A model generated the notes under the pieces. It was not told the origin of the DNA and made no database searches. It saw only the letters and a program-made list of their open reading frames with translations. Source: Candidatus Omnitrophota bacterium (lineage in GTDB: Bacteria; Omnitrophota; Gorgyraeia; Tantalellales; Tantalellaceae). Taken from it: DNA of 64,000 nt. Location: positions 7,382 through 71,381 of the forward strand of contig JBARQV010000025.1 of NCBI GenBank assembly GCA_049643885.1, read 5' to 3'. Of the stretch, positions 45,445 through 62,102 are shown in pieces; position 1 is the first letter of the stretch; the number at the start of each line of letters is the position of its first letter. A program made the translations under genes and the position numbers.

Positions 45445-45559
45445 CTTTCACTCCGTGAAAAATTGACTTTACTTTATCAACCTCGCCCGCACCCGACCTG
45501 CGGCCGCGACGAGCCCCTCGCGTCGTCAAGGGCTTAAGGACTGGCGCGCCCGGCAGCGC

Positions 45560-45575
45560 TGATCCGGCTACGATC
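45560..45575. repeat. 16-nt duplicate of the tRNA-Arg(TCG) 3' end
   Basis: tggcgcgcccggcag is identical to 45720-45734, the tRNA 3' acceptor/T-arm end, and lies 144 bp downstream of the tRNA gene. It looks like an attL/attR-type direct repeat. Confidence 0.6.
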
Positions 45576-45719
45576 CTCCTACTCGTCGGATTGCTTAACG
45601 CCGGCCCAGCATCAAACTTTCTGTCCATAAAGTTTGTGACTCTTTGCCTAAATTTTCTCATTTATGGCAAGAGCTCTTCCTCCGGCCATTTAAAGCTTGT
45701 TCTTCCAACAAGCTTTAAA

Positions 45720-45796
45720 TGGCGCGCCCGGCAGGACTCGAACCTGCGACCTACTGGTTCGAAGCCAGCTACTCTATCCAACTGAGCTACGGGCGC
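45720..45796 (-). tRNA. tRNA-Arg (TCG)
   Basis: GCGCCCG-TA-GCTC-AGTTGGATA-GAGT-A-GCTGG-CTTCGAA-CCAGT-AGGTC-GCAGG-TTCGAGT-CCTGC-CGGGCGC-G-CCA. Confidence 0.88.
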
Positions 45797-47474
45797 GCAA
45801 AACACATCCTACCGCTTCGAATATCATCCAAACTTCCAGAAGTAATATCATACCACCGATTATCGCAAGATTCCATTGTCCAGAACCGAAGAACCCTAAG
45901 ACATTGACCGTCAGTGCCCAGCTCGAAGTGATCATCATAAAAACCATAGGCACGGCCGTGGGCCACGCGTTCGATCCTTTTTTTATAAGGTAGATCGACG
46001 CCACAAGAAGCACAAGACCTGCAAGAAGCTGGTTGCTTGTCCCGAACAGCGGCCAGAGCATGAGGGCACCTCCCCCCCCGCCCTGCGCGAACGCCAGGGC
46101 TGCCGCCGCCCCTACCGCCAGCAGGGTCGCGGGATACCTTTTCTGTAATATCTTGATCTTGGAACTCACTGCCAGTTCGGTGATGACGTAACGCTGAACG
46201 CGGGTGGCCGTATCCAGTGTTGTCCCCGCGAAAGAAGCCACCAATACGCCCACGATGGCATGCCCGTACTTCAAGGGTATGCCGAGGCTTCCCAGCATAT
46301 TAGCGCTGCCCTCCACAAAAGCCGAAACCTTCGCGGTAAGTCCCTGGGCTGCAGCCCAGCTGGAATAGTGCAGGTTCCAGGCGGCAAATCCGGTCAGAAC
46401 CTCGCCTCCCTCGCCTTTTGTGTACATCCCGATACCTGCCGCTACCGCGATGATGACCAGAACAGCCAGAAGACCTTCGGTAAGCATTCCCCCGTAAGCT
46501 ATAAAATGGATGTCTTCCTCGTTTTTAAGCTGTTTGGAGCTGGTCCCTGAGCTTACCAGGGAGTGGAAACCCGAGATAGCGCCGCACGCAATGGTAATAA
46601 ATAAAAACGGTAAAATGGGCGGCGCTCCTTCCGGAGCCAGTTGGATGGCCGGAGCTACTACCACCGGACGGGCAACAAGGATCCCAAGCACAAGAAGCGA
46701 GATACCTATGATAAGCTGGTGTGAATTTATATAATCACGCGGCTGCAGAAGGCTCCATACCGGAAGGACGGAAGCAAAAAAAGCGTATATGAAAAGCAGG
46801 ATTATCCATATGGCCAAGGGTGAAAATATCCCTACTGCGGGCATGGTAAAAGGCATATGTACACCAATGGCGATCGATATATACATCAGTATAACGGCTA
46901 TGATCGACATCATGGTTATATTGATCTTTTTTTTGTAAGCAAGCCAGCCGACGGTCATGGCAATAGGGATCTGGACCCATACCGGAAAGACCGACTGGGG
47001 ATACATGCGAAAGATCAGGGCGATGACCATCCCGAAGATCGCGACGACGATCCACAAGGAAAAGAGGATCACGAAAAGAAAAAGCATCTTTACCCGGGAG
47101 TTGATTATCCTGCTGGATAACTCACCGATAGATACCCCCTTGTTCCTGGTGGACATTATAAGGGCGGCGTAATCGTGCACTGCCCCGGCGAAGATGGACC
47201 CCAGGATTATCCATATAAGAGCGGGAACCCACCCCCATATAATAGCTATGGCCGGCCCGACTATCGGACCGGTCCCGGCGATCGAAGCGAAATGATGTCC
47301 GAAAAGGACTTCCTTATTGGTCGGGATATAGTCGATATCGTCCCTCAGCTCTTCGCTCGGCACGGGAGTAGCGGGATCAGCACGGAATATTTTCCTCGCT
47401 ATAAAGTTCCCGTAAAAGTGATACGCGAGGCCAAGAGCCGCGAAAGCGATTAGTACCAACCATACTGAACTCAA
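45774..47474 (-). CDS. cstA: Carbon starvation protein CstA (peptide/pyruvate transporter family)
   Basis: HHFASIAGTGPIVGPAIA, about 16 TM segments and FLFITIACGAISGFH. It is called with a TTG start. The annotated stop lies inside the tRNA-Arg gene (last 22 nt), so the real 3' end is uncertain. Confidence 0.75.
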   Translation of the reverse strand: MSSVWLVLIAFAALGLAYHFYGNFIARKIFRADPATPVPSEELRDDIDYIPTNKEVLFGHHFASIAGTGPIVGPAIAIIWGWVPALIWIILGSIFAGAVHDYAALIMSTRNKGVSIGELSSRIINSRVKMLFLFVILFSLWIVVAIFGMVIALIFRMYPQSVFPVWVQIPIAMTVGWLAYKKKINITMMSIIAVILMYISIAIGVHMPFTMPAVGIFSPLAIWIILLFIYAFFASVLPVWSLLQPRDYINSHQLIIGISLLVLGILVARPVVVAPAIQLAPEGAPPILPFLFITIACGAISGFHSLVSSGTSSKQLKNEEDIHFIAYGGMLTEGLLAVLVIIAVAAGIGMYTKGEGGEVLTGFAAWNLHYSSWAAAQGLTAKVSAFVEGSANMLGSLGIPLKYGHAIVGVLVASFAGTTLDTATRVQRYVITELAVSSKIKILQKRYPATLLAVGAAAALAFAQGGGGGALMLWPLFGTSNQLLAGLVLLVASIYLIKKGSNAWPTAVPMVFMMITSSWALTVNVLGFFGSGQWNLAIIGGMILLLEVWMIFEAVGCVLRARSSVG

Positions 47475-47500
47475 GATAACTCCCTTTAAGTCGGTATTTG

Positions 47501-47600
47501 TATGTCATCCCGGACCCGCCGAAGGCGGGATCCGGGACCAAATAATATTGTTATATGATCCCGGGTCTCGGCCTGAGGCCTCGCCCGGGATGACATATTG
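47501..47600. repeat. Family A REP/MITE-like element (copy A2, complete with terminal inverted repeats)
   Basis: tatgtcatcccggaCCCGCCGAAGGCGGGatccgggaccaaataatattgttatatgatcccgggtctcggcctgaggcctcgcccgggatgacatattg. The ends caatatgtcatcccgg / ccgggatgacatattg are perfect TIRs. Confidence 0.75.
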
Positions 47601-47601
47601 T

Positions 47602-49167
47602 CTATCTCTTCTTCCAGGCGTAATACCTAAGACTGTCCTCCAGCCACTCGCGGCCGTTACGGACGAATTCCGTCCACCGCGAGGCAAGGCACATGCCCCT
47701 GGCAGTATCCGCGTTCCCCTCCCCTATCTTCTGCGAGACCGTGGCCAGGTCAAGCTGCAGGCGGATCGGAACCCGGTTCTTTTCATCTTCCGGAAGCAAT
47801 TTCGCAAGGCTGACCAGCGCGTCCGCTCCTTTAAGGAGTATATCAAAAAGGACTTTCTCTCCGCCTATCGCCCCAACCATGATCTCGTTTACCGGTCCCA
47901 GCCGAAGTATTTCCAGTTCCCCGGTCTGTTTATTGGAAATGTTGTCAGCTCCAAGGTATCCTATACCTTCTTCGGCAAAACCAAGCTGGAATATCCTGTG
48001 ATAAATGGTCTCAAGCCTGGGGCCGTTACTCGACAGGCGGTAATGCGATCTCAGCCCCCAGAGCCCGAAATCTATATGCTCGTTTACCAAAGGGATATAC
48101 CTCCTCTGGAATTTCTTTTCAAATATTTCTAGTGAAGAAACAAGTTTTTCTTCCGCTAGCTGCCGGTCTATGATCATTTTCGCGAGCTTCTCCCTGCGTT
48201 TCCCCGCGCATCCTTCGAGGTAATCTTTGAGTATTTTCAGGGCTACCGCGTCATCCGCGCCCTCGATGGGAAGATCCAGATGCAGGTAACTTGACCTCAT
48301 CTTTTCATCCGAGAAAAAGAGCCGGTATATCCATAAAAGCTCCTTCATCTTTGCTTCATTCGACGTATCGAGATCGATAAATGTCGGATGGATCTCCGAA
48401 ATATCTCCCGAAACCTTCGATAGGTCGGGTATGATGTAACCATCCCCGGCCTTGGTGATCCGGAAACCCCCAAGCCCGCCTCCGCCTTCATGGGGTTTGA
48501 CAAAAAAGGTGTCATCTCCGGTTTCCTCTATAAGTTCATCCACAGCATCAAACATATCCCCGACAACGGCCTTTATACTCTTCCCCTCGACAGGTATTTT
48601 TTTATACATGGCGACCTTATCCCAATTTTTGCCGTCATTAGAAAGCAGCCTGTACGTGCTGTCCTTGTCGGAAAAAACGCTCCCGGGGGCCGTCTCCTGA
48701 CCCGGAACTATAACGGCGCCCATACTCTCCAGATCCATCGCCACGGATACGTTATAAACATTTTTATCCACGCACTGGCTCATTACAAGCGTACTCCCGG
48801 GATACTCGTTCACTTCCTTCATCAGCTCGTCATGCGTGTTGACAACGGTCGATCGTATTTTCCATCCTTTCTCCGCGCACAACTCATTAAAAACACGGGC
48901 AGTCTCATAGGATGTGGGTAGATCGTCATGAGAAGCATTTATGATCACGATCTTTTTAGGAAGTTTATTCAATGATGGTTCCTTTTCCAGGCAGAATTCC
49001 CTGAAAAGGTCCTTCTCTCCAAGGAGCGAGTTGAACAAGTCAATAAGCCTGGTATTATAATCCCCTCCTTCACCGTCAAATATAAGTGACCGCAAATAGA
49101 ACGGCGCCTGGTAAGGGTCATCGCCCTTGTATCCGGTCACATAATATTTCGGGTCTCTTTCTATCAT
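47602..49167 (-). CDS. ATP-grasp-like ligase, 521 aa (unassigned family)
   Basis: Central FFVKPHEGGGGLGGFRI (ATP-grasp Lys and Gly-rich loop), a preceding Rossmann-like pre-domain (KKIVIINASHDD) and a long helical C-terminal extension. It starts 3 nt after the stop of the 482-aa ATP-grasp gene. Confidence 0.45.
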   Translation of the reverse strand: MIERDPKYYVTGYKGDDPYQAPFYLRSLIFDGEGGDYNTRLIDLFNSLLGEKDLFREFCLEKEPSLNKLPKKIVIINASHDDLPTSYETARVFNELCAEKGWKIRSTVVNTHDELMKEVNEYPGSTLVMSQCVDKNVYNVSVAMDLESMGAVIVPGQETAPGSVFSDKDSTYRLLSNDGKNWDKVAMYKKIPVEGKSIKAVVGDMFDAVDELIEETGDDTFFVKPHEGGGGLGGFRITKAGDGYIIPDLSKVSGDISEIHPTFIDLDTSNEAKMKELLWIYRLFFSDEKMRSSYLHLDLPIEGADDAVALKILKDYLEGCAGKRREKLAKMIIDRQLAEEKLVSSLEIFEKKFQRRYIPLVNEHIDFGLWGLRSHYRLSSNGPRLETIYHRIFQLGFAEEGIGYLGADNISNKQTGELEILRLGPVNEIMVGAIGGEKVLFDILLKGADALVSLAKLLPEDEKNRVPIRLQLDLATVSQKIGEGNADTARGMCLASRWTEFVRNGREWLEDSLRYYAWKKR

Positions 49168-49170
49168 TTT

Positions 49171-50619
49171 TTACCCGCTGCTTACCAGCTCGACCTCGCT
49201 CGCACTTCTTAAGCCGAGTTTATTATAAACTCTTGTTATTATCCCCCTCGCCTCGGGAGTCAGTTTTTTCCTGTTCGAAGGGTCAAGCGCTTCTCTCAAA
49301 AATTGTATCTTGCAGATAGACGCGTTCGGTTCGATGACCGAATACTGCCTGGGAACAGAACAAGTGACCAGTATATCATCCGGCCCGCGGCACTCGCCGA
49401 TGAAAGCGCTTTCTTTCCGCAGCACGAACTTTCTTTCCTCTTTCCGGTATATCCCCGGCTTGAGGTTTCCGGTAGCAACGTTCCTCTCCAGGCGGTTATG
49501 CAGGATTACCTGGCTTCCTTTTAAAGGATACATGAGTTCATCGTAAGGAAACTTCCTGAGATACTCCCTCATTACCCTGTCGTTTTTCTGGAGAAATTCC
49601 GCTATATGCAGCAAGAAAAGCATCCCCTTGCGTCCGGGCTGCATGCTTGTGAGCGAAGTGTAAAGGGAAGTCGAGTTCTGGAACCTGGGGTTTATCTCGA
49701 CCGGATATACAGTTTCGTCCTTGACCACAAAATCCATACCGAAGATGCCGCGAAAACCGGACCGGGACATCCATTCCCCGATGGCCCGCATGTTGCCGAC
49801 GGCCCCGTCTATTATTTTCCGCGGGAGCCCGCAGGCCGAAGCATAATCATTACCGCAGAACGCGGACGGAAAATTACTGCACTCCGGGCGGCCGGTGATC
49901 TGGACGGAAGGGAAAGCGCTGAAAACAGCCGGCCCTTTGTCCGTCGAGATTATGATGGCATTGCCGTTTAACGAGTACCCGTTTATATACCTGCGCATGG
50001 TCACTGTCTGATGGGGATAATTTCGACGCAGGCGGTTATATTCTTTTTCCTCATTGATGATAAAAGTAAAATTCCCGCTTGAACCGTATGGGAACTGTAT
50101 GACAAAAGGCAGGGACAACTCTTCGCGGAGGTCCCGGAACGTCTTCTTTTCCAGTTTTTCCACCAGACCCGGGATGCGGGGCAGGCCAAGGTCCCTCAGG
50201 CTTTTTTGAAGAAGCAGTTTATTATCAAAATGTTTTTTCAGTTTCTCCGGCATGGCGTAGATCCTGGGCCTTTTTGACAATGAGCTTCCGTTCTTCTCAA
50301 GTTTCCTCACAGAACGGTAACATAGGATATTCGCCGGTTTCTTGAAACTGTTCAGATAACTGAATATCTCGCGCCCGAGCGCACCCTTGAAACTTTCGTT
50401 CAGGTCCTCGTTAGACCAGTTCTTGCGAGCGCCTGTCTGCTTTTCTACCGAAAAGACATCCTCTTCTCTGAAATAATACGGGATATCGGTCCCGTAATCA
50501 CAGCTGATGATGAAATCCAGCGGGAGGACCCGGTTTATCCCGGCCGCGTCATGAGCGCGCTGCCCCATCCACCCCCACGGGCCATATTTTTCCTTTAGGT
50601 ATTCGACAATTTTCTTCAT
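49171..50619 (-). CDS. ATP-grasp ligase, 482 aa
   Basis: LPFVIQFPYGSSGNFTFII and GIFGMDFVVKDETVYPVEINPRFQNS, the ATP-grasp B and C-domain motifs, with an N-terminal extension of about 130 aa. Confidence 0.6.
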   Translation of the reverse strand: MKKIVEYLKEKYGPWGWMGQRAHDAAGINRVLPLDFIISCDYGTDIPYYFREEDVFSVEKQTGARKNWSNEDLNESFKGALGREIFSYLNSFKKPANILCYRSVRKLEKNGSSLSKRPRIYAMPEKLKKHFDNKLLLQKSLRDLGLPRIPGLVEKLEKKTFRDLREELSLPFVIQFPYGSSGNFTFIINEEKEYNRLRRNYPHQTVTMRRYINGYSLNGNAIIISTDKGPAVFSAFPSVQITGRPECSNFPSAFCGNDYASACGLPRKIIDGAVGNMRAIGEWMSRSGFRGIFGMDFVVKDETVYPVEINPRFQNSTSLYTSLTSMQPGRKGMLFLLHIAEFLQKNDRVMREYLRKFPYDELMYPLKGSQVILHNRLERNVATGNLKPGIYRKEERKFVLRKESAFIGECRGPDDILVTCSVPRQYSVIEPNASICKIQFLREALDPSNRKKLTPEARGIITRVYNKLGLRSASEVELVSSG

Positions 50620-50624
50620 AATAA

Positions 50625-50667
50625 TATGTCATCCCGGAATTCGCCGAAGGCGAATATCCGGGATCAA
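50625..50667. repeat. Family A element, half copy (A3)
   Basis: tatgtcatcccggaATTCGCCGAAGGCGAATatccgggatcaa. It lies in the 44-nt gap between the DUF1704 and ATP-grasp genes and starts 5 nt from the ATP-grasp ATG. Confidence 0.65.
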
Positions 50668-51764
50668 TTAACAATAAACCCCGGCAAGTACTTCGGCGGC
50701 TTCAAGATACCCTCGTCGAGCAGCTTCTTTACAATGCCGACATCTCTCAGGCCGATCTTGCCTATATAAAGAATACTTAAATTTCCTCGATTTTCAACAT
50801 ATCGCCGCATTTTAGGCCACCCGCTGATATAGTGGTAATCGCGGGGGAAACCACCCGGGTTAGATGTGTCCTCGATCCCCCTCTTCGCCCTTTCAGCCAG
50901 CCTGTAGGCCAGGTAATCCGGAAAAAACTCTCTGAGGGCCAGGAACATATCGTAAAACGAGACCTTGAGGCAAAGATCCGCCGCGAGTGTCCTTCCCGCG
51001 TAAAGCTTCATCTGCCGGGTGTCCGTCTCCAGGCACCCCGCCTTCTCTTCAGCAAGAATGGCCAGCCCTTCTTCCGTCTCATCATACCCGGCGAGCCCGT
51101 CCCGGAATATCTTGTAAGGCTGCTCTTCTCCGTTGATACCCCTGTAGACGTGCACCTCGATCTCGTGGACCTTCAACCTTTCGACTTCTTCTTTAGTGTA
51201 ATTGATGGCCGAATTTATATAGACCGTCCTGTCCTTTGATGAAACGGTGATCTTGGGAACGATCTTTCTGCTCAGGACGACTTCCCATCCGATGCCTTTT
51301 TCTTCCAGTCCCTTCCGCAGGACGGAAGCCATCTCCTCCGGCGGCACCGTTTCTTCGGGAAACTCGTATCGCCTTTCCCTGCTCTCTGAAAGGACATTCC
51401 CTGCGATGTCCAGGCATTCTCCGTCCGGCGCGCCGTACAACCTTACCGCGTTCACGGCGAACTGCGGATCGGTGCATTTGATGAGTTCCAGCTGCTCTTG
51501 TATAAAAACGATCTTGTCGATAAAGAGCCTGTGAATATCGTTGCTTTCGTCAAGGGCGTCCCTGGTCTCGCGAAGCCACCTTTCCTGGTAAAAGAACTCG
51601 ACGTCCTTATACTTGTAGACCGGATTATAACGGGCGCCCTTCTTGAAATTCGAAAAGAATTTCTCCTTTTCCTCTTTCTGGTTCAAAGGGGTCAGGTAAG
51701 AATAAAAATCGACCTCTCGCATGATCTCGCTTATGCGATTATCTATCCCGTGCAAATTTATCAT
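50664..51764 (-). CDS. DUF1704/MATCAP-like metallocarboxypeptidase-fold protein (QEGLA-motif family)
   Basis: An HExxxH-type motif (KVHEIEVHVY) and the family's signature ETEEGLAIL (QEGLA-type). Size is about 366 aa. Confidence 0.65.
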   Translation of the reverse strand: MINLHGIDNRISEIMREVDFYSYLTPLNQKEEKEKFFSNFKKGARYNPVYKYKDVEFFYQERWLRETRDALDESNDIHRLFIDKIVFIQEQLELIKCTDPQFAVNAVRLYGAPDGECLDIAGNVLSESRERRYEFPEETVPPEEMASVLRKGLEEKGIGWEVVLSRKIVPKITVSSKDRTVYINSAINYTKEEVERLKVHEIEVHVYRGINGEEQPYKIFRDGLAGYDETEEGLAILAEEKAGCLETDTRQMKLYAGRTLAADLCLKVSFYDMFLALREFFPDYLAYRLAERAKRGIEDTSNPGGFPRDYHYISGWPKMRRYVENRGNLSILYIGKIGLRDVGIVKKLLDEGILKPPKYLPGFIVN

Positions 51765-51765
51765 C

Positions 51766-52449
51766 TTAACGTGGTCTTCCTACCGGCATCATATATACAG
51801 GAGTTTCTTTTTCCGTTCCCAGCACCCCGGCCACTTCCCTGTCCTTGAAAGCGCCGATCATTACCGTCCCGAGCCCCAGGCCTTCGGCCTGGAGGTGGAC
51901 ATTCTGCCCCAGGTGCCCGGCATCCATCGGGACATACATGGAGCGCCCGCGCTCACCGTACCTGCGGGTGGTCTTATCGTAATCTGCCGTTATAACGATC
52001 GTAACAGGCGCTTCACCGACCATGTATTGGCCGCGCGCAGCTTTTCTTAATTCGTTCCTTAGATCTCCCCTCCTCAGTAGAGTAAGGGAATTTTCTCTCC
52101 AGTTGTAACGGTATATTCCCGCCTCAAGCCCGGTGACATTCCCGGCGACCAGAAATATCTCTAATGGATATGACGCCCCGGCCGATGGATAGGACCTGGT
52201 AGGGCCCGTCACACCATCTACGGTCTGACCTCCCGCAGCCCAGAGAAGCTGGGAGACCTCTTCCAAGGTCAAGGGGGCACCGGTGAAGCTGCGGATCGAT
52301 TTTCTTTTGAAGATCGCCTGTTCGACTGATACCTTGCCTTCATACCTGGGCTTGGGAAGGCGAACTACGTCGCCTTGTGTAAGGCCATTTTCAGAAAAGA
52401 ATGCTACAAGTACCGCAAAAAATAAGATCAAAATTACTTTTGCCCGCAT
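51766..52449 (-). CDS. SagB-type dehydrogenase/nitroreductase-fold protein with signal peptide
   Basis: Nitroreductase-fold motifs RKSIRSF, PSAGASYPLEIF and GHLGQNVHLQAEGLGLG. The N-terminal hydrophobic leader is MRAKVILILFFAVLVAFF. Confidence 0.6.
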   Translation of the reverse strand: MRAKVILILFFAVLVAFFSENGLTQGDVVRLPKPRYEGKVSVEQAIFKRKSIRSFTGAPLTLEEVSQLLWAAGGQTVDGVTGPTRSYPSAGASYPLEIFLVAGNVTGLEAGIYRYNWRENSLTLLRRGDLRNELRKAARGQYMVGEAPVTIVITADYDKTTRRYGERGRSMYVPMDAGHLGQNVHLQAEGLGLGTVMIGAFKDREVAGVLGTEKETPVYMMPVGRPR

Positions 52450-52495
52450 GTCCCCCTCCTTTGAAACTTAAGTATATGATATATCAGGGATAAAA

Positions 52496-53896
52496 TCAAA
52501 CTGCATGGAATTCGTAATCGCTTTCTTTGAGTAACGTTTTTCGCCACAACTCGACAGGTTCCATGCAAAGGTAGACCCAACATTTTGCATCAAGAGACCT
52601 TATCCATTCGATTATTTTGTTATACATGTGGATCCTCAGTTTCCTGGGATAACGAAGTTTGCCGTCGGTATCAAGGAAGAACTCACCCTGGTAGAAAATA
52701 AGATTATCCTCAAACCTGTTCTCCGCGGCCTGTTTTAACCCCGGCGTATAGCGTAACGTACCGAGACTTACCCAGGCCGTGTTCTTCCGGATCAGTTCCT
52801 TTGAGAACATCTCCTCGACCACTGTTTTATACTCCTTCTCCCACCCGGGATAATATACTATCGGGTCAAAATGGAAACCGACCTTGTATCCCCTTTTGGC
52901 CGCGCGGATAGCCGCATCTATCCTTTCAGGGACGCTGGCCCCACCCTTCTCGTACTTCCCTGCGACCCTTTCAGTGTTAATGGACCAGGATATGACCACA
53001 TTGTCATGCGGATCCTGCTCTAAACAATTGTCGATCCGGCTCACTTTGGTCTTTAGTTCCAAAACCAGGTTTTTTCGTTTTTTGAAAAAGGGTATCAGGT
53101 ACGACGAATAGTTTGTATACCCGTCAAAAGCGAGGGAGTCCGTAAATTCACCGGTTCCTATCCTCGTCCTGCTTTTAACCTTTTTATCAAAATCTTCTGC
53201 ATATTTATAATAATCCTCTATATTAGCGGGCAGGATCATGCCTGGAGCGTTGCTGTAAGTCTGCAGGTAGCAGTACGAGCAATCAATAGGACAGCCGAAC
53301 CCTATGTTCAGTATCCAGTAGCCGCACCTTTTATACCCTTTAGTGCAGGGACACACCTTGATGAAAGCGGCTCTATTCTTCACCAGGAAGGCGGTTTCTC
53401 TTCTTGAATTGTAAGGGGCTACTGTATCTTCCCGGGATAACGAGTCTAATCCTTCCTTGAGACTGTCGATAGAAATAATTTCGGCGTGGGGGAAGTGCCG
53501 GATAAAAAGGCGGGTCCATTCCAGGTCCTGCACGCTTTTCTCTACAAAAATATTCGAGGGATGCAGCTCAAGATCCCAGGCCGGGCACTCCTCTTGGACC
53601 GCACCTATCATCGCGGGCATTATATGAGGATCGTCATTCGGCCCTATGGTCGGATACCTTATCTCCAGAAGTCTCGTCTTGAACCTGCGGAAAAGCTCCC
53701 CCCTGCCTTCTTCCATGAGTTTATTGATCTCCGCGCGTTCAAAAACCTCCGCGGGGGTGACATTTCCGGCCCGGCATATCTCGAAGATAAGCCTTACCAG
53801 TTCATTCCTTTTATTAACGCCAAGCTTTATGGGAAGTGTTTCGTTTAAAAGGACTTCGACCTTTTCGGCGAAACGCCTGTTGTCCGCGATAGTCAT
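52496..53896 (-). CDS. Spore-photoproduct-lyase-like radical SAM enzyme with about 150-aa N-terminal extension
   Basis: GCPIDCSYCYLQ (CxxxCxxC) and downstream SPL/DNA-repair radical-SAM family blocks. The N-terminal 150 aa have no match to SPL. Confidence 0.7.
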   Translation of the reverse strand: MTIADNRRFAEKVEVLLNETLPIKLGVNKRNELVRLIFEICRAGNVTPAEVFERAEINKLMEEGRGELFRRFKTRLLEIRYPTIGPNDDPHIMPAMIGAVQEECPAWDLELHPSNIFVEKSVQDLEWTRLFIRHFPHAEIISIDSLKEGLDSLSREDTVAPYNSRRETAFLVKNRAAFIKVCPCTKGYKRCGYWILNIGFGCPIDCSYCYLQTYSNAPGMILPANIEDYYKYAEDFDKKVKSRTRIGTGEFTDSLAFDGYTNYSSYLIPFFKKRKNLVLELKTKVSRIDNCLEQDPHDNVVISWSINTERVAGKYEKGGASVPERIDAAIRAAKRGYKVGFHFDPIVYYPGWEKEYKTVVEEMFSKELIRKNTAWVSLGTLRYTPGLKQAAENRFEDNLIFYQGEFFLDTDGKLRYPRKLRIHMYNKIIEWIRSLDAKCWVYLCMEPVELWRKTLLKESDYEFHAV

Positions 53897-53948
53897 GGGG
53901 GTATTATAACGTATTGGCTACGGGGTGTCGACGGGTTTTGGGCAGGCC

Positions 53949-54161
53949 TTATTTTTTTCGGCGTCCCAGTTCAAGGTACAGGAAAGCGGAGAAAAAAAGC
54001 ACGCTGGCCGCAAGATAAAGCAGGTTGTCTTGGATCGCGGAGCCATCTATCGCCACGTTGGCATAGAAACCCCAGAAAAAAAGCGCGGCCAGGAAACACA
54101 AGACGACCCTTACCAGCATCCTCTGCTGACTTGTAAGCTCGTTAAACCATTTTTGAAGCAT
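53949..54161 (-). CDS. Small 2-TM membrane protein
   Basis: 70 aa, two hydrophobic helices and a basic C-terminus. Confidence 0.3.
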   Translation of the reverse strand: MLQKWFNELTSQQRMLVRVVLCFLAALFFWGFYANVAIDGSAIQDNLLYLAASVLFFSAFLYLELGRRKK

Positions 54162-54193
54162 GAAGGACTCCTATCGTTAAGCGGATCTTTGCA

Positions 54194-54853
54194 TCAAAAA
54201 ATTGCCGTAAGCTTGATGCCTATGACATTATAGCCGGTCCATTTATCTTTTTTTTCGCTGTTCTGCAGAAGATAATAAATATCGGCCTTCAGGTACTTGA
54301 TGATCTTCATGGTGAATCCGGCGTAAAAGCGGTTGCGGTAGAATTTCTCACCCTGGAAATCTACAAATATCTCGTCCGCGAGATAGGGCTGGATATCGGA
54401 TTCCGTCCATTTCCATGGGAATTGGGCCGTTAATTTATTCCTATACTGCCATTTGCAGTCTTCATCCTCAAAGTCCCGGTATTCAAGACGGTTCCTGTCG
54501 CTGAGCTTGAACCCGGACAGGTCCCATTTCAGCGTCGCGTCGGCGTGGGGCCTGTTTTCTTCCTTCCATTTTCCTTTTTTCTTTTCATAAATGAGCCGAT
54601 AAAATAAGCCGAGGTCAAGATTACCGTTTACCTTCAACGTGAATCCGCCGTCCGTATGAGTGTAATACAACTCGGAAATATCTCCCCCGAACCTCAACTC
54701 TTCCTCGACCTTGACTTTAAGGTTTTCGTTCAACCTTGCTTCTATACTATCGGTGTTCCAAAGCTGCAAATCCCCGTTCTCGTAAGCAGATGCCGGCATG
54801 ATCCCCGTTAAGATCAGACCCATGACCAGACCCGCACTTATTAATGCTCTCAT
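54194..54853 (-). CDS. Secreted beta-barrel-like protein (DUF2490-like)
   Basis: Start set to MRALISAGLVMGLILTG (a signal peptide). Alternating aromatic/polar beta-strand pattern, ending in F. Confidence 0.45.
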   Translation of the reverse strand: MRALISAGLVMGLILTGIMPASAYENGDLQLWNTDSIEARLNENLKVKVEEELRFGGDISELYYTHTDGGFTLKVNGNLDLGLFYRLIYEKKKGKWKEENRPHADATLKWDLSGFKLSDRNRLEYRDFEDEDCKWQYRNKLTAQFPWKWTESDIQPYLADEIFVDFQGEKFYRNRFYAGFTMKIIKYLKADIYYLLQNSEKKDKWTGYNVIGIKLTAIF

Positions 54854-54883
54854 GCTTTCCAAATCGACAAGGGTTTTTAAAAA

Positions 54884-54960
<77 letters not shown>

Positions 54961-54987
54961 ACCGTACATATAGAGCAGTGCTTTTAA

Positions 54988-55008
54988 TGGTGCGGGTGGA
55001 GGGATTTG
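54988..55008. repeat. 21-nt duplicate of the tRNA-Leu(TAG) 3' end
   Basis: tggtgcgggtggagggatttg is identical to 55196-55216, the tRNA-Leu 3' end, and lies 187 bp downstream of that tRNA. Confidence 0.6.
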
Positions 55009-55195
55009 GCGCCTCCGTCCCGCTAAACATGTTTTTATTCCTCGCTTCCGCTCGTCAAAAAACATATCGGGACTCCGGTCGGCCATCCGCCGCTTCGGTT
55101 GTGGTCGTTTCTTCGCCAGCTCAGAAACTCCCTTTATTAAAACCTCAGCGGCTCCCTTCAACTCCCCACCATTCTATGCAATTACTGGCGAAAAG

Positions 55196-55279
55196 TGGTG
55201 CGGGTGGAGGGATTTGAACCCCCACGGATAAACCACTGGCTCCTAAGGCCAGCGCGTCTGCCAATTCCGCCACACCCGC
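55196..55279 (-). tRNA. tRNA-Leu (TAG)
   Basis: GCGGGTG-TG-GCGG-AATTGGCAGA-CGC-GCTGGC-CTTAGGA-GCCAG-TGGTTTATCCGTGG (long variable arm)-GGG-TTCAAAT-CCC-TCCACCCGC-A-CCA. Confidence 0.85.
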
Positions 55280-55323
55280 CTAAAACAGACTTCAGACATC
55301 AGTCTGTTGTCTGTGGTCTGAAA

Positions 55324-55402
55324 TGGTCGGGAAGGCGGGATTTGAACCCGCGACCCCCTGCTCCCAAAGCAGGTGCGCTAGCCAGGCTGCGCTACTTCCC
55401 GC
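55324..55402 (-). tRNA. tRNA-Pro (TGG)
   Basis: GCGGGAAGTAGCGCAGCCTGGCTAGCGCACCTGC-TTTGGGA-GCAGGGGGTCGCGGGTTCAAATCCCGCCTTCCCGACCA. Confidence 0.85.
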
Positions 55403-55409
55403 AAAAATA

Positions 55410-55486
55410 TGGGGTGAGCGATGGGGATTGAACCCACGACCACCTGAGCCACAGTCAGGCGCTCTACCAGCTGAGCTACGCTCACC
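55410..55486 (-). tRNA. tRNA-His (GTG) with encoded G-1
   Basis: G-GTGAGCG-TA-GCTC-AGCTGGTA-GAGC-G-CCTGA-CTGTGGC-TCAGG-TGGTC-GTGGG-TTCAATC-CCCAT-CGCTCAC-C-CCA. The extra 5' G pairs with C73, as is characteristic of bacterial tRNA-His. Confidence 0.88.
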
Positions 55487-55498
55487 ACGATTAACGAT

Positions 55499-55527
55499 AT
55501 TCTATGTGCTAAGGATATGTAAGTCAA
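55499..55527 (-). promoter_or_regulatory. Putative sigma70 promoter of the His-Pro-Leu-Arg tRNA operon
   Basis: Minus strand: TTGACT, a 17-nt spacer, TAGAAT, then 8 nt to the tRNA-His G-1. An A/T-rich UP-like tract lies upstream. Confidence 0.5.
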
Positions 55528-55618
55528 TAAAAAACCCCACGCCGGAAAATCCATTTTAAGCCGGAAAAGCGATAAGCTTTCTTGCAGGCTCAATTTCTCC
55601 ATGATATACTAACCAATC

Positions 55619-57121
55619 ATGCTGAAATTTCTTAAGATCTTACTGGTCATCACATTTTCCATCGCTGCATTACTGGCGGCCGCGTACTTCCTGTATAAAG
55701 ACACGCTTGCCGAAAAAGCGGAAGCTGTTTTCGAGGCCAGGCTCTCCGAGATATTCAAGCAAAAAGTCGATATCGGCGCGATAAAATACCTTCCCTTAAG
55801 CTCTTTTAGCCTAAGGGATGTTGCCATTTCTGATACCGTTCGTATTCAGAATATAACTTCAAGGATCGACCTTTTAAGCATATTGAAAGAACGGGAATTC
55901 CGGTCAACCGTTGCGATCAAAGGCTTCAAGATGAAAGATATTGAGGTCAGCGCGACACTTAAGACGGAATCGCTAAAGGCTGGATCGTACAAGGACGTGT
56001 TCGATCCATCTCTTCTGAAGACCATTTCTATCACCGGGTGCGAACTGAAGACAAAACTGTTTTCCCTGGAAAAGATCCAGGGTGAAGTAAATATCGAAAA
56101 AACAGGTTACCGGGTCTGTCTCTATTCCGACGGATTGGAGGCAATCTTTGAGGCAAAATCAAAAGATACTGCTGCCACGGAAAAAACCCTGGAGATAAAC
56201 GGAAAGGTCGAAACCGACATCGGAAAACTCTTGTCCTTTTCCGGCCCGATCGGATCATTCATTAAAAACTGCAAAGCTTCCGGCAAGATCGGTTCCAAGA
56301 TCTTTATGTCCCTGAAAACGACGGAGATCCGGGACTACGAATTAAATGCCAGGATCGATTCGGATCAGATCATGTTCAATAACATCAAGGTCGGCGACAT
56401 CCATGGGGGCCTTTATGTCAAAAAGGGACGCCTTAATGTGCCTTCGGTAACGGCGACGCTCTACGGGGGCACGGTATCTTCAAACCTGGAAATGGACCTC
56501 CATGATAAAAACCTCCCCTTTCTTTTTACCTTGAACATGCGGGACGTCGAATTCGGCAATATGTTACGGGACGCGATAAACGATAAGGTCAATGTTTACG
56601 GAAAATTACTCATAGATCTGTCCCTCAAAGGAAATGCCGTCGACAGTTCGGCTTTCACCGGCAACGGAGAGATAATCATAACAGACGCCGACCTCGGGCC
56701 GATGCCGATCCTCACCCCCCTTCTGGGTAACATCTACGGGTACCTTCAAAGCTTCATCCCGGGGATGGAAAAAGTAACTATTACATCGGCCGGCGCGACC
56801 TTAGACATAAGAGACCGGAAGATCATGAGCGACGACCTGGTCTTATGGAGCGAAGAGGTATTCATCACCGCCAAGGGCCACATGGATTTTAACGGAACCC
56901 TGGATTTTACCGTCGAGAACCAGCTTATCCAGCCGGAAGAAGAAGAACTAGACAGCTGGCAGGGCATATTCAGGAGGGCTATAACGGGCTTCGGCAAGAT
57001 AATAAGTAAAGCGCACTTGCGAGGGACAATAAAAAAATCGAAATGGGAATTTGAATATCTAACTCCCTTGAAGGATATGTTCCGGAAAAGCGTCAGGGAG
57101 TTTATAAATACTTCTCAATAG
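55619..57121 (+). CDS. AsmA-family membrane-anchored protein
   Basis: N-terminal TM anchor, a long beta-rich periplasmic region and an AsmA-like C-terminal region. This is the only long plus-strand gene in the window. The candidate promoter is TTGCAG-17-TGATATACT. Confidence 0.55.
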   Translation: MLKFLKILLVITFSIAALLAAAYFLYKDTLAEKAEAVFEARLSEIFKQKVDIGAIKYLPLSSFSLRDVAISDTVRIQNITSRIDLLSILKEREFRSTVAIKGFKMKDIEVSATLKTESLKAGSYKDVFDPSLLKTISITGCELKTKLFSLEKIQGEVNIEKTGYRVCLYSDGLEAIFEAKSKDTAATEKTLEINGKVETDIGKLLSFSGPIGSFIKNCKASGKIGSKIFMSLKTTEIRDYELNARIDSDQIMFNNIKVGDIHGGLYVKKGRLNVPSVTATLYGGTVSSNLEMDLHDKNLPFLFTLNMRDVEFGNMLRDAINDKVNVYGKLLIDLSLKGNAVDSSAFTGNGEIIITDADLGPMPILTPLLGNIYGYLQSFIPGMEKVTITSAGATLDIRDRKIMSDDLVLWSEEVFITAKGHMDFNGTLDFTVENQLIQPEEEELDSWQGIFRRAITGFGKIISKAHLRGTIKKSKWEFEYLTPLKDMFRKSVREFINTSQ

Positions 57122-57701
57122 ACTGCTTGAATTTCTTCAGCGCTATGCCGCGGTGGCTTATCCTGTTCTTGTAAGAAGGGGTCATCTCGGCGAACGTCTT
57201 GTCATAACCGTTGGGCAGGAAAACCGGATCGTAACCGAAACCGTTTTCGCCTCTGGGGCAGTTCAATATCCTGCCTTTTATCGTCCCCTCAAAATTTCCC
57301 AGAAGCATCCCTTTTCTTGCCAGGGCTATGTTACAGACGAATCTCGCGGCACGTTTTCTATCCGGCGCGCCCTCCAGGAGAGTCAGCAGTTTTTTGTTGT
57401 TCTCCTCATCAGTGGCTTTGGCCCTGGCGAACCTGGCAGACCTAACGCCTGGCTTGCCTTCAAGGATGTCCACTTCCAAACCCGAATCGTCGGCAAGGAC
57501 CAGGCTGTCGAAAAATCTGGAAATCGTCACCGCCTTTTTGACCGCGTTCTGACGGAAAGTCTTGCCGTCTTCGACGACGATCGGGGGAGCGACATCCAAG
57601 TCGTCAATGTCCAGGATCTTGACTTCCTTGAACCTTTTAAGAAGAATCTTTATTTCCTGGCGTTTCTTGCGATTATGCGTGGCAACTAATATTTTAGTCA
57701 C
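57102..57701 (-). CDS. rdgB: dITP/XTP pyrophosphatase (RdgB/Ham1)
   Basis: [26 protein letters not shown] and RISHRG motifs. Confidence 0.85.
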
Positions 57702-58422
57702 TCAACACTCCTTTTAAGGCCTGCTTCTGGACATCGATAAGATGGTCTATCCCCTTTTTTGCCAGTTTCAGCATCTCGTCCATGCAGGATCGGCTGAAGG
57801 GATTTTTTTCCGCGGTGCCCTGCACTTCCACGAACCTCCCTGAATCCGTCATTGCCACGTTCATGTCCACCTCGGCCTGGGAATCTTCATCATAAGAAAG
57901 ATCGAGAAAGATCCTGTCGCCGACTATGCCGACACTGACCGCGGCTAAATAATTACTCACAGGTATGGACGCGAATACGCCCCGCTTTTTAAGTTTTCCC
58001 AGGGCAAGGCAAAGGGCCACAAAACTTCCGGTAACACTGGCGCAGCGCGTTCCCCCGTCAGCCTGGATCACATCGCAATCCATCCGGATCGTCCTTTCAC
58101 CTAATAGTTCAAGGGTAGTAACGCTCCGTAGTGCCCGTCCTACAAGCCTCTGTATCTCATGGGTCCTGCCGCCCTTACCGCCTTTACTTGATTCCCTCGG
58201 GACCCTTTTCTGGCAGGAGCGGGGCAGCATCCCATACTCTGCTGTGAGCCAACCCGTTCCCCGCCCTTTCAAAAAGGGGGGGACCCCGTCTTCGACACTG
58301 GCGGTGCATATCACTTTTGTATTACCCAGTTCTATGAGACAAGACCCTTCAGCGTACTTGATATAATCGGTCTTGAGAGACATTTTACGCATTGCATTAG
58401 CCGTGCGTCCGTCTGTGCGCAT
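57694..58422 (-). CDS. rph: Ribonuclease PH
   Basis: [35 protein letters not shown] and the classic rph-rdgB gene pair. Confidence 0.9.
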
Positions 58423-58464
58423 TACAACTCCTCTCTATGTTCATCGATCGTATATCGTCGGTCG

Positions 58465-58588
58465 TATGTCATCCCGGAATTCGCCGAAATAGAAATATGT
58501 CATCCCGGAAATCCTGAGCGAAGCGAAGGATTATCCGGGACCACATAATAATTTTATTTGATCCCCGCTTTCGCGGGGATGACATATT
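58465..58588. repeat. Family A element, composite copy A4 (half module plus complete element)
   Basis: tatgtcatcccggaattcgccgaaatagaa, a truncated module matching A3, is followed by a full element atatgtcatcccggaAATCCTGAGCGAAGCGAAGGATTatccgggaccacataataattttatttgatccccgctttcgcggggatgacatattg. Confidence 0.7.
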
Positions 58589-58605
58589 GTCTTTCTTTTG
58601 AACCC

Positions 58606-59130
58606 TCACATACTAGCATAAATGTCGTTGCCCTTACAATCGATCGCGACTATCGCCGGAAAGTCCTCGACTTCAAGCTTATAGATCGCTTCCGCGCCGA
58701 GTTCCTTGAATGCTACTGTTTTGCTTGACCTTACTTTTTCGCTTAAGAAAGCGCCCGCTCCGGCCGGCGCTACAAAATATACCGCTTTCGTGCGTTTTAT
58801 CGCCGCTCTTACTTCACCGGACCTTTTCCCCTTTCCGATCATGCCCTTTAATCCAGCTTCAAGAAGTCTCGGAGTGAACGGGTCCATCCTTCCGGACGTC
58901 GTTGGACCGCACGAGCCGATAGCTCTTTCCCGGGGAGGCGACGGCCCGCAGTAATAAACGACCTGGCCGTTTAGATCGACAGGAAGTTCTTTACCCTGCT
59001 CCAAAAGGTTGAACAGTCTCAGATGCGCCTGGTCGCGGGCTGTCAGGATAGTCCCGGTAATACGCACCTCATCCCCCGCCTTCAGCGACGCTATTGTTTC
59101 TTCAGTTAGTGGTGTCTTTATAGTTTTCAT
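58606..59130 (-). CDS. Class I fumarate hydratase, beta (C-terminal) subunit
   Basis: Fe-S hydro-lyase beta-subunit signature GQVVYYCGPSP...FVAPAGAGAFLS, with the alpha subunit encoded immediately upstream. Confidence 0.8.
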   Translation of the reverse strand: MKTIKTPLTEETIASLKAGDEVRITGTILTARDQAHLRLFNLLEQGKELPVDLNGQVVYYCGPSPPRERAIGSCGPTTSGRMDPFTPRLLEAGLKGMIGKGKRSGEVRAAIKRTKAVYFVAPAGAGAFLSEKVRSSKTVAFKELGAEAIYKLEVEDFPAIVAIDCKGNDIYASM

Positions 59131-59131
59131 A

Positions 59132-59171
59132 ATATGTCATCCCGGACGGCCATTAGGCCGATCCGGGATCA
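59132..59171. repeat. Family A element, half copy A5
   Basis: atatgtcatcccggaCGGCCATTAGGCCGatccgggatcaaataata fills the 38-nt alpha-beta intergenic space. It begins 2 nt from the beta-subunit ATG and overlaps the last 3 codons of the alpha subunit. Confidence 0.65.
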
Positions 59172-60020
59172 AATAATAGTACTCGCGCTTCTCAGCGCAT
59201 GGCACGCCACGTTCACCGCGACCGGCAACCCCGCGATATGCGTCGGCGCGAGCTCTATATTGACTCCCATGACAGTCGAGAGCCCTCCCAATCCCATAAT
59301 GCCTATCTTTAAAGCCTTCGCTTTTTCCATTATCTTGTTTTCCATTTCGGCGACATGCGGTTCGCGATGAGGTTCATCGATCGGCCTCAAAAGAGCCTTT
59401 TTCGCGAGTAAAGCGCATGTGTCCATGGTCCCGCCTATCCCTATGCCCAGGACATAAGGAGGACACGCGTCCGGGCCGGCGATCTTAACGGTCTCAACGC
59501 AAAAATCGATTATCCTGTCCGGGCCAGATGTCGGGTTCAGCATGATCAGCCTGCTTTTGTTCTCCGAGCCGAACCCTTTGGGCATGACTGAAATTTTCAT
59601 TCTGTCGCCTTTCACGATATCAACGTGAATTGCCGCGGGGGTGTTGGTCCCGGTATTCTTCCGGAGCAAGGGATCCCCTACCACTGAATTGCGAAAAAAA
59701 CCCTCTCTATACGCTTCCTCTACGCCCTCATTGACAGCCTGGATGAGATCGCCTCCGTAAAAATGGACGTCTTCCCCTATCTCCAAAAATACAACTACGA
59801 GCCCTGTATCCTGGCAAATAGGGATGTTTTTCTTGTCGGCTATTTCGGCGTTTTCGACAAGGATCTTCAGCATGTTTTTCGCCTGGGTGCCTTTCGGCTC
59901 CTGCTCGTAAAGCCGCTTGATACCCTCAAGGACATCGGGACGCAGAACAGTGTTAGCCTTTAAAGACAACTCCTTGACAGCTAGTTTGATATCTTCGACC
60001 TTCATCTCACGGACGCTCAT
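59169..60020 (-). CDS. Class I fumarate hydratase, alpha (N-terminal, Fe-S) subunit
   Basis: PICQDTG and the downstream Cys ligands of the hydro-lyase alpha-subunit family. Confidence 0.8.
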   Translation of the reverse strand: MSVREMKVEDIKLAVKELSLKANTVLRPDVLEGIKRLYEQEPKGTQAKNMLKILVENAEIADKKNIPICQDTGLVVVFLEIGEDVHFYGGDLIQAVNEGVEEAYREGFFRNSVVGDPLLRKNTGTNTPAAIHVDIVKGDRMKISVMPKGFGSENKSRLIMLNPTSGPDRIIDFCVETVKIAGPDACPPYVLGIGIGGTMDTCALLAKKALLRPIDEPHREPHVAEMENKIMEKAKALKIGIMGLGGLSTVMGVNIELAPTHIAGLPVAVNVACHALRSASTII

Positions 60021-60820: not shown

Positions 60821-60877
60821 CAGGGTTATTATAAAGGATTAAAGGTAATTGGTAAAGGTGATAAGTGGCGCGGGCGA

Positions 60878-60937: not shown

Positions 60938-60942
60938 ATATA

Positions 60943-61971: not shown

Positions 61972-61988
61972 GTTTGCTCCTTCATTTA

Positions 61989-62030: not shown

Positions 62031-62102
62031 AAGACGTAAACAAAAACTGTAAAAAAGGTTACGACTTATCACATATATTAATTTTTGAGTTGTAAACTGC
62101 TT

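Follow-up and report, generated by a model that had tools for sequence, protein, structure and literature searches.

In a 64,000-nt stretch of DNA from a Candidatus Omnitrophota bacterium (contig JBARQV010000025.1; hereafter, the window), we analyzed a dispersed, hairpin-forming, non-coding repeat that lies between genes and in two places directly adjoins a start codon. Judging by the sequence features that it shares with published repeats, this family appears to belong to the CGTC/TGTC-tagged kind of repetitive extragenic palindrome (REP), of which it is an expanded form in Omnitrophota. In the interpretation that we favor, the units would additionally be spread by an enzyme acting in trans, and genes that closely follow a unit would be translated by coupling to the preceding gene. 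We assign this interpretation, together with these two proposals, a probability of roughly 0.6.

A first-pass annotation of the same DNA had described a dispersed, hairpin-forming repeat family, and this description is borne out, as is its placement of copies at all 5 sites. [quoted passage not shown] We find that the repeating unit is ~44-53 nt, not 100, and that the 100-bp "complete element" is a dimer of two units. What looked like TIRs are the head ends of two REP-type units in inverted orientation, and we found neither a variable target duplication nor, in the window and the comparison loci, an autonomous partner. Below, coordinates are positions in the window, strands are given in brackets, and L-numbers (e.g., L007, L035 and L104) designate comparison loci from other genomes or metagenome contigs.

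Architecture of units and dimers

The unit begins with an unpaired head, TA-TGTC, which is followed by an outer stem of 8 bp (ATCCCGGR/YCCGGGAT) whose first pairs are A-T and T-A. The outer stem encloses a variable stem-loop of 15-58 nt, for which we observed ~85 different sequences. On the 3' side, a single extrahelical (bulged) A lies between the inner and outer stems, and is present in 120 of the 123 units that keep the outer stem. The unit ends with a 3-nt tail, CAC, CAA or CCA, and then ATAA or another A/T-rich sequence. In a collection of 150 non-redundant units gathered with a covariance model, 145 have TGTC as the tag and 3 have CGTC, and the tail is CAC in 68, CAA in 28, CCA in 21 and CAT in 15. 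Two types of unit can be distinguished. Type A units have CCCGGA and freely varying 7-bp inner stems, while type B units follow the pattern CCCGGG-CGAGGCC-NNN-GGCCGAG-A-CCCGGG, with two conserved G·A mismatches.

Units usually occur as inverted dimers, in which the two tails face each other across a fixed AT-rich spacer (7 nt in the 100-bp element). Among adjacent units, 54 pairs are arranged tail-to-tail, 1 is head-to-head and none is head-to-tail, and the spacers fall into length classes of 5, 8 and 14. Dimers consist of an A and a B unit (33 cases) or of two A units (18 cases), never of two B units, and their halves usually differ in the inner stems. Whether folded as RNA or DNA, dimers are predicted to reach -55 to -68 kcal/mol (z = -5.6 to -9.6), and singlets -25 to -27 kcal/mol. 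For 2 of the 3 dimers in the window, those at 47501 and 26875, the minimum-energy fold is one long branched hairpin in which head pairs with head and tail with tail. According to these folding predictions, this conformation is a REPIN-like alternative to two side-by-side hairpins.

The window contains 8 clear units at 5 intergenic sites, namely 3 inverted doublets and 2 singlets, along with 1 truncated stub and 1 degenerate unit. Scores in bits are those of the covariance model.

47501-47597: tail-to-tail dimer of an A-type unit, 47501-47545 (+), and a B-type unit, 47551-47597 (-), with a 7-nt AT-rich spacer (60.7 and 71.2 bits); flanked by the 521-aa gene, which stops at 47602, and CstA, which starts at 47474; RNA fold -59.6 kcal/mol, z = -7.8
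26875-26973: tail-to-tail dimer of a unit at 26875-26921 (+) and a unit at 26927-26973 (-) with the degenerate head GGGATAACAC; flanked by the polysaccharide-deacetylase gene, which stops at 26976, and PGI, which starts at 26822; RNA fold -67.7 kcal/mol, z = -9.6
58496-58586: tail-to-tail dimer of a unit with a long inner stem, 58496-58548 (+), and a short canonical unit, 58554-58586 (-), which reads TGTC ATCCCCGC GAAA GCGGGGAT CAA
58465-58495 (+): truncated 5' stub with head box, 5' arm and loop only (TATGTCATCCCGGAATTCGCCGAA...), abutting the 58496 dimer; 24 nt are identical to 50625-50648
50625-50671 (+): singlet that takes up the space separating the MATCAP-family and ATP-grasp genes (72 bits); fold -25.5 kcal/mol
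59133-59176 (+): singlet that takes up the space separating the fumarase alpha and beta genes (52.4 bits); fold -27.1 kcal/mol, z = -5.5
34228-34265 (-): probable degenerate B-type unit, ATCCCCGG CGAG TGGAA CGAG A CCGGGGAT CAC, without the TGTC head (20.2 bits, E = 0.009); flanked by metK and by the ATG (34213-34211) at which ahcY probably starts

These occurrences stand out clearly from chance. The 13-nt head sequence TATGTCATCCCGG has 7 exact occurrences in the window, and 19 when up to 2 mismatches are allowed, where 1.75 are expected and the maximum in 100 shuffles is 5. The pattern of the central tract that the first-pass annotation reported between two hairpin modules has 10 matches in the window versus 0.28 expected. 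The covariance model, which was trained on 14 units, recovers the 8 units with E = 1e-16 to 5e-7. Near-matches to the 13-mer at 4242, 9235, 12875, 18840, 36767 and 52845 lie within coding sequence without a hairpin, and we attribute them to chance.

Some details of the earlier description must be revised. The inverted termini of the 47501 copy are perfect over 13 nt (TATGTCATCCCGG / CCGGGATGACATA), rather than the 16 originally given; the left flank of this copy reads ...tttgTATGTC and not caaTATGTC. The copy reported at 58465-58588 does contain a dimer, at 58496-58586, but its first part is the truncated stub. The copies at 50625 and 59133 had been considered half-length; they are complete units. 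The annotation's gene identities for fumarase alpha, fumarase beta and the ATP-grasp gene agree with Pfam.

Stubs like that in the window also occur in tandem elsewhere. Such stubs are 31-33 nt long, consist of head box, 5' arm and loop, end within the 3' arm, and up to three of them directly precede a complete unit with the same inner sequence (L020 1160-1258, L026 139-214, L030 36-99, L016 74-96 and window 58465-58495). This arrangement suggests abortive or slipped copying from the head end.

Compensatory variation in the hairpin

It had been noticed that the inner hairpin differs among copies yet stays self-complementary, and covariation in two alignments (A2 and A3) confirms this statistically. 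Standard pairs occupy 92.5% of cells in A2 and 94.4% in A3. After shuffling these values fall to 77.7% and 79.3%, and when partners are slid they fall to 17-54% and 22-65%. Of the 15 stem pairs, 11 in A2 and 8 in A3 have changed on both sides. In the two alignments together, 305 cells show two-sided changes and only 5 show one-sided (wobble) changes; since these cells count sequences and not independent events, they overstate the number of substitutions. Pairs 2-7 of the outer stem are invariant or nearly so, and the proportion of distinct sequences with the first A-U pair is 44 of 52 and 61 of 85.

That wobble pairs are nearly absent speaks for a constraint on the DNA or on both strands, rather than on a single transcript, or else for template switching from one arm to the other. 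If template switching acts, the bulged A and the G·A pairs have been left uncorrected, which would mean that these imperfections are themselves maintained. We also observed the same inner variants at unrelated sites and in different genomes. For example, AATTCGCCGAAGGCGAATA is present at window position 50625 and in L007, L008, L010 and L013. Such recurrence points to copying rather than local evolution.

Relationship to known repeat families

The CGTC-tagged REP superfamily was described by Di Nocera, De Gregorio & Rocco (2013, PMC3733652). According to these authors, the CGTC tag is "changed to TGTC ... in many repeats", and can also be CCTC. The tag is followed by a stem of 8-9 bp, with complementary A/T residues at positions one and two, and a loop of 4-5 nt, although families with other loop lengths were noted. 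At the untagged end is a short, unpaired tail with the consensus CCA. The repeats frequently form inverted dimers, mainly head-to-head, which is a tendency and not a strict criterion; they are found downstream of open reading frames (ORFs), and they "apparently lack a dedicated transposase". They were reported from five phyla, none in the PVC group, and include Neisseria dRS3 and Rickettsia RPE-4 and RPE-6 (PMC3733652).

The Omnitrophota units resemble these repeats in their unpaired tag (TGTC or CGTC), in an 8-bp stem that starts with A-T and T-A, and in a short 3-nt tail. Like them, they are often inverted dimers and lie in intergenic regions downstream of ORFs, and no transposase gene flanked by them was found in the loci searched. 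A more direct connection comes from the short unit at 58554-58586, which shares 24 of 24 nt (GTCATCCCCGCGAAAGCGGGGATC) with multiple copies on the replicons of Azospirillum lipoferum 4B, a species named in PMC3733652. The Azospirillum copies read CGTC ATCCCCGC GAAA GCGGGGAT CCA and are in a tail-to-tail dimer. Further matches to the short unit are found in Rhizobium, Sphingobium, Sphingopyxis, Novosphingobium, Tistrella and Neisseria.

There are also differences. In most Omnitrophota units, the loop is replaced by the variable inner stem-loop and the bulged A, and a loop of 4-5 nt is present only in the short unit, whose loop is GAAA. The tail is mostly CAC or CAA, one base off CCA. In addition, the dimers have fixed short AT-rich spacers and are almost always tail-to-tail, in contrast to the published dimers, and the short Azospirillum repeats go undetected by our covariance model, which describes the expanded units. 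Both of these last observations weigh against the proposed membership, and because of the second, the assignment is based on the shared defining features and one 24-nt identity.

We considered other repeat systems for comparison. As in REPIN-RAYT systems (Bertels & Rainey 2011, PMC3116915; see also PMC3337134), the main unit is an inverted REP pair with a short spacer, dimers occur alongside singlets, related lineages retain the family, and a whole dimer can fold into a long hairpin (-60 to -68 kcal/mol). However, the head of the Omnitrophota units is TGTC, with no GTAG, the halves of a dimer usually have unlike inner stems, and searches with E. coli RAYT and IS608 TnpA as queries, which give only a weak negative, revealed no RAYT gene near any copy. 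The BIMEs of Escherichia coli are mosaics of REP Y and Z units in alternating orientation, with characteristic linkers between the tails. The Omnitrophota dimers are similar in having two subtypes in alternating orientation and linkers between tails, but their sequence is unrelated, their head motif is different, and inspection by eye found no IHF-site consensus in the 7-nt spacer. Correia-type families have true TIRs and target duplications, the latter being TA for Correia elements. With ~100 bp, inverted ends and intergenic locations, the Omnitrophota dimers are similar to Correia elements, RUP, ERIC and Nezha, but half of the Omnitrophota element is already a complete palindromic unit, and no duplication beyond a constant TA is detectable. 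The Neisseria Correia elements and these other MITEs are intergenic, are co-transcribed with neighboring genes and affect their expression (PMC3733652).

Distribution and orthologous sites

The family is abundant in metagenome-assembled genomes (MAGs) of Omnitrophota and in metagenomes. The window corresponds to a metagenome scaffold (ENA ERZ23498717), and its proteins are themselves closest to Candidatus Omnitrophota. A scan of 185,579 species genomes yielded 28 loci, of which 24 are in Omnitrophota MAGs, including 20 in a single MAG (JBAROI01). The 4 loci outside of Omnitrophota (L014, L018, L023 and L028) have short, non-palindromic inner parts, and their number is close to the chance estimate; we left them out. 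JGI metagenomes contributed 58 loci, and no copies were found in the viral contigs scanned. Among short contigs from other samples, several end within ~45 nt past fumB, inside a dimer located between fumB and rph; this is explained by the fact that dispersed repeats break assemblies.

In a comparison of orthologous sites, copies are present at some sites and absent at others, so that the family has been mobile or turned over. The synteny around both singlets of the window is conserved in other Omnitrophota. Between fumA and fumB, there is no element in L035, where FumB is 75% identical and the genes have an ATGA overlap, nor is there one in L037 or L038. By contrast, this position in L036 (74%) is occupied by a diverged copy (TTATTTGAT..., a different hairpin, then ...GGATGATAT), in which the TGA stop is kept. 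The boundary in the comparison of filled and empty fumAB sites is ambiguous by 1 nt. Between the MATCAP-family and ATP-grasp genes, L106 is empty and shows an ATGA overlap, upstream of which is AGGTAGA. In L104, the TGA is immediately followed by a relic hairpin and then by a Shine-Dalgarno (SD) sequence of the gene's own, and L105 has an unrelated long palindrome. At the junction of the 521-aa gene and CstA, there is a dimer in the window and an overlap in L104-L106. The site between PGI and the deacetylase gene has a dimer in both the window and L013; the genes have 70% nucleotide identity, and the two dimers have almost the same boxes and spacer, but share nothing in their inner stems. Finally, an element lies upstream of tRNA-Lys in L016 but not in the window, in a region that is not alignable across the insertion. 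These filled and empty sites imply that members of the family have been gained, lost or replaced at individual sites.

Some junctions are occupied by other repeats. At the fumB/rph junction, L035 (2735-2848) has GTATCAGAG-type repeats with an inverted copy in place of this family, and L105 (611-726) has its ~90-nt palindrome at the MATCAP/ATP-grasp junction. It seems that Omnitrophota operon junctions have been hit repeatedly by different hairpin elements.

Two further observations concern the surroundings of the elements. First, the operon in window 45500-52500 and in L104-L106 is conserved in Omnitrophota, and encodes a radical-SAM/SPL-like protein, a nitroreductase, a MATCAP-family peptidase, an ATP-grasp ligase, the 521-aa protein, which has no Pfam match, and CstA. 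In L106, every junction visible in the fetched stretch is a 4-nt overlap. Second, short tandem runs of the CAATAC/CAATACT type (e.g., ACTCAATACACAATACGCAATACACAATAC) adjoin many elements in contigs of the Ga0163203 and Ga0208325 metagenomes (L046, L051, L068, L071, L075, L077, L082, L083 and L101).

Start codons next to the elements

The two singlets in the window form parts of gene junctions, as follows.

59169-59171 (-): TGA at which fumarase alpha stops, lying in TGATCC, the tail box of the element
59128-59130 (-): ATG of fumarase beta, 2 nt after ...GGGATGACATA; no AGGAG-type SD
50664-50666 (-): TGA at which the MATCAP-family gene stops, lying in TGATCC, the tail box of the element
50617-50619 (-): ATG at which the 482-aa ATP-grasp gene starts, 5 nt downstream of ...GGGATGACATA; no AGGAG-type SD

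Thus, as the first-pass annotation stated, these copies end 2 nt (fumB) and 5 nt (ATP-grasp) from a start codon that has no conventional SD, and the end of the element is the only purine-rich sequence ahead of either ATG. The annotation had also assigned the last three codons of fumA to the element; the element does contribute to the 3' end of this gene, but with the TGA stop and about two sense codons. It had overlooked that the 50625 copy likewise provides the stop of the upstream MATCAP-family gene.

We propose that the downstream gene at these junctions is probably translated by coupling, and not by a free-standing SD. The two singlets would have landed in former ATGA stop/start overlaps, with the tail box now supplying the upstream stop. 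A ribosome terminating at the foot of the hairpin would then melt it and expose an A/U-rich start region along with a weak GGGA motif. The TGA is within the tail box at both window singlets and also at L031, which we count in favor of coupling. Whether orthologs without the insert have a conventional ribosome-binding site differs between the two genes. The ATP-grasp ortholog in L106 has a moderate match upstream (the AGGTAGA, -6.1 kcal/mol), which implies that the insertion separated this start from an older signal. The fumB ortholog in L035 has no SD (best anti-SD duplex 0.0 kcal/mol), and in view of its ATGA overlap, the SD-less fumB start may predate the insertion and reflect translational coupling. 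On the simplest reading, fumB already depended on coupling, with which the insertion then had to stay compatible.

An alternative is that the element's end, GGGATGAC, is a genuine SD that recruits the 30S subunit directly to the fumB and ATP-grasp starts. In addition to the absence of other purine-rich motifs, this idea is supported by recurrence. Approximately 8 elements, from different genomes, directly adjoin starts that have no SD, with GGGA at a distance of 8-12 nt, and in L031, L050, L091, L046 and L090 an ATG follows GGGATGACA at this distance without a separate SD. Moreover, CAGGATGAT is retained at an unchanged distance in the diverged copy of L036, where it matches slightly better (-5.2 kcal/mol). 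However, the best anti-SD match of fumB and ATP-grasp is the element's GGGA, at only -4.1 kcal/mol. This value is within the weaker third of window genes, for which the median best duplex is -6.2 kcal/mol and AGGAG-type sites are common, many at -8 to -12 kcal/mol. (We assumed the canonical anti-SD sequence.) The spacing from GGGA to the ATG is long, at 9 nt for fumB and 12 nt for ATP-grasp. The motif also lies within the 3' arm of the outer stem, and in free mRNA its predicted probability of being unpaired is at most 0.01, such that a motif buried in a hairpin of about -25 to -27 kcal/mol would depend on translational coupling to act at all. When a ribosome footprint is placed over the upstream stop, the predicted probability rises to 0.28-0.69 for fumAB and to 0.03-0.13 for MATCAP/ATP-grasp, which we also count in favor of coupling. 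The SD-less start in the element-free L035 again argues against the alternative, as does the presence of a normal SD behind elements that are not directly next to a start (L009, L011, L104 and CstA). We therefore consider direct recruitment unlikely.

In summary, the idea that the element supplies ribosome-binding sites is conceivable but has weak support; judging by the folding and duplex predictions, GGGA may contribute once the hairpin has been opened, while a free-standing SD function of GGGA is unlikely. Our preferred explanation, coupling, has its own weaknesses, in that it draws on folding predictions and on the assumed anti-SD, and in that the predicted unmasking at the ATP-grasp start is small.

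As a related observation, NCBI annotation for the same species (L040 2290-2295, corresponding to window 59128-59133, minus strand) starts FumB at an ATT located 3 nt upstream of the ATG, so that the 175-aa product begins with MM. Start calling was presumably confused by the missing SD.

Position within operons and possible host function

The distance from the preceding stop codon to the element is short, with a median of ~8 nt, and is at most 15 nt in 36 of 52 cases. The distance from element to start codon is broader, with a median of ~32 nt. Genes on both sides are co-directional at 52 of 61 classifiable sites, which does not differ from the background of 288 of 346 gene pairs. Dimers show no preferred orientation relative to transcription (10 versus 9), and clean singlets, identified by inspection, are antisense in 6 cases and sense in 1, which is too few to use. 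A promoter and terminator scan of 45500-60500 called no copy as an intrinsic terminator or a sigma-70 promoter. On the mRNA strand, the sequence past the hairpins is GACAUA... with no U run, which indicates that the elements are not intrinsic terminators. An Rfam scan of the window reported only seven tRNAs, and the repeat matches no family above the gathering threshold.

These data bear on the possibility that the repeat is a host RNA element kept by selection, e.g., for protection of mRNA 3' ends, for processing, or for tuning of termination or translation at operon junctions, and that its spread was ancient and has ended. Such a role fits the location of copies just past stop codons within operons, which is seen for REPs in general, as well as the persistence of orthologous copies, with conserved boxes, across genomes whose coding DNA is only 70% identical. 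In addition, E. coli REPs located <16 nt from a stop codon were reported to stall ribosomes and lower upstream translation, according to the summary of Liang et al. (2015) within PMC12306157. However, the near-absence of G-U wobble (5 versus 305 two-sided cells) is unusual for selection at the RNA level. The lack of orientation preference, the background-like gene contexts, and the lack of a U-tract or Rfam match also speak against this hypothesis, and the same inner variants at unrelated sites and in different genomes point to copying. We regard a primarily host-selected RNA element as quite unlikely.

Mode of spread

Under the interpretation that we favor, the units are non-autonomous, and an enzyme acting in trans would spread or renew them as DNA. 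This enzyme would recognize the folded hairpin (the foot of the stem, the bulged A, the head and the tail) and not the inner sequence, which would leave the inner stems free to vary, yet only by Watson-Crick pairs. Copies would persist almost only just past stop codons, as the operons are tightly packed and other positions are probably harmful.

Several findings weigh against this interpretation. We searched six-frame ORFs of the window and 86 loci (484 kb) for Y1/HUH transposases of the RAYT and IS200 types, using E. coli RAYT and IS608 TnpA as queries; no match rose above noise, a negative of limited weight from loci none of which is a complete genome. Pfam analysis of ~60 window ORFs found no transposase, integrase or recombinase domain, and ORFs bracketed by units are ordinary (metallophosphoesterase, hydrolase and similar). 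In metagenome contigs of near-identical strains, 0 of 290 element positions had changed, so there is no direct sign of ongoing movement in these contigs and turnover must be slow. Lastly, covariation by Watson-Crick pairs only could arise without selection, by template-switch correction of quasi-palindromes. Clustering of ORFs near elements also revealed no recurring neighbor gene, and the top clusters were translations of the repeat or ordinary enzymes.

A conventional MITE would be a derivative of a DDE transposon, e.g., of the IS630/Tc1 type with TA insertion, whose transposase binds double-stranded TIRs, so that the hairpins would be incidental. The high copy number and intergenic location are compatible with this idea, as are the inverted ends TGTCATCC...GGATGACA (5'-TGT...ACA-3') and a flanking TA, present in 36 of 50 cases on the one side and in 36 of 50 on the other. 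Nevertheless, flank matches in 50 dimers at k = 2-5 were not above those of shuffled pairings (for k = 2, 21 versus 25.2), 44-nt singlets are already complete units, and no transposase with these ends was found in the 484 kb. Compensatory variation and an invariant bulged A would be unexpected if double-stranded TIRs were recognized, and the tag, stem and tail match the REP superfamily. A conventional MITE is thus improbable. As for attC-like recombination sites of an integron-type system, which are folded single-strand hairpins, the likeness is formal (a conserved outer stem, an extrahelical A, a hypervariable 15-58-nt end and a position after stop codons), and the idea is effectively refuted by neighbors that are housekeeping genes in conserved synteny with or without an element. 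Boxes without GTTRRRY/RYYYAAC cores, the lack of an integrase among window ORFs by Pfam, and the occurrence of units as inverted dimers also speak against it.

A bolder version of our preferred interpretation is that the conserved foot, the bulged A, the Watson-Crick-only inner stem and the dimer rule mark an enzyme that acts on folded single-stranded DNA, and that the copies that split ATGA overlaps are obligatory couplers, hiding the start until termination occurs on the element's own stop. We consider this stronger combination speculative and doubtful.

Other repeats and features of the window

The degenerate unit at 34228-34265 is informative as to the start of ahcY. The long ORF has its first ATG at 34312, while the AdoHcyase Pfam domain begins at residue 40. 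The later ATG (34213-34211) is preceded by a GGAGGA SD, and the 100 nt between the two ATGs contain the degenerate unit. The first ATG is probably not the true start.

The window has further repeats. A second, unrelated palindromic family of ~90 nt (AGTGCAGCATATTCCCTACCAGGG...CCCTGTACGGGAACAT.CTGCACT) occurs at 14695-14786, 28292-28383 and 29168-29250; one copy is inverted and each is internally palindromic. A third repeat, of ~220 nt, is found at 6152-6378 and 29261-29480 with ~90% identity, and has its own inverted ends of 25-33 nt, e.g., AAACAGCTCCACAAAAACAATAAAA / TTTTATTGTTTTTGTGGAGCTGTTT. A fourth, short palindromic family (…TGTTTG.AGCGGGG… / …CCCCGC…CAAACA) is located at 387-538, 4444-4598 and 29100-29156. 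The region from 28.1 to 29.5 kb is a cluster of several different repeat families with little coding sequence. Finally, positions 60001-64000 have a G+C content of 0.39, compared with 0.47-0.51 elsewhere in the window, and their genes include a histidine-kinase-like ATPase/STAS-like protein and a ferredoxin-domain protein.

Implications

If our classification is correct, it would extend the range of CGTC/TGTC-tagged REPs to Omnitrophota, which belong to the PVC group and are outside of the five phyla reported previously. It would also mean that such repeats can reach a high density even where the genome is small and tightly packed, with five to six sites in 64 kb. As a practical matter, the repeats break metagenome assemblies and mislead start calling, as with FumB at ATT and the first ATG of ahcY, which is probably wrong. 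If the stalling reported for E. coli in the summary cited above holds here, most elements would also affect the gene upstream.

The overlapping junctions that were split by an element, including one between subunits of a single enzyme, and that now use a stop supplied by the repeat, are natural test cases for translation past a stable hairpin of 40 nt. With respect to the bolder hypothesis, an enzyme in Omnitrophota that acts on folded single-stranded DNA would, if it is real, be the missing mobilizing activity of the 'orphan' CGTC REP superfamily. The combination of a fixed foot and bulge with a free inner stem offers a handle for finding the protein that recognizes orphan REPs.

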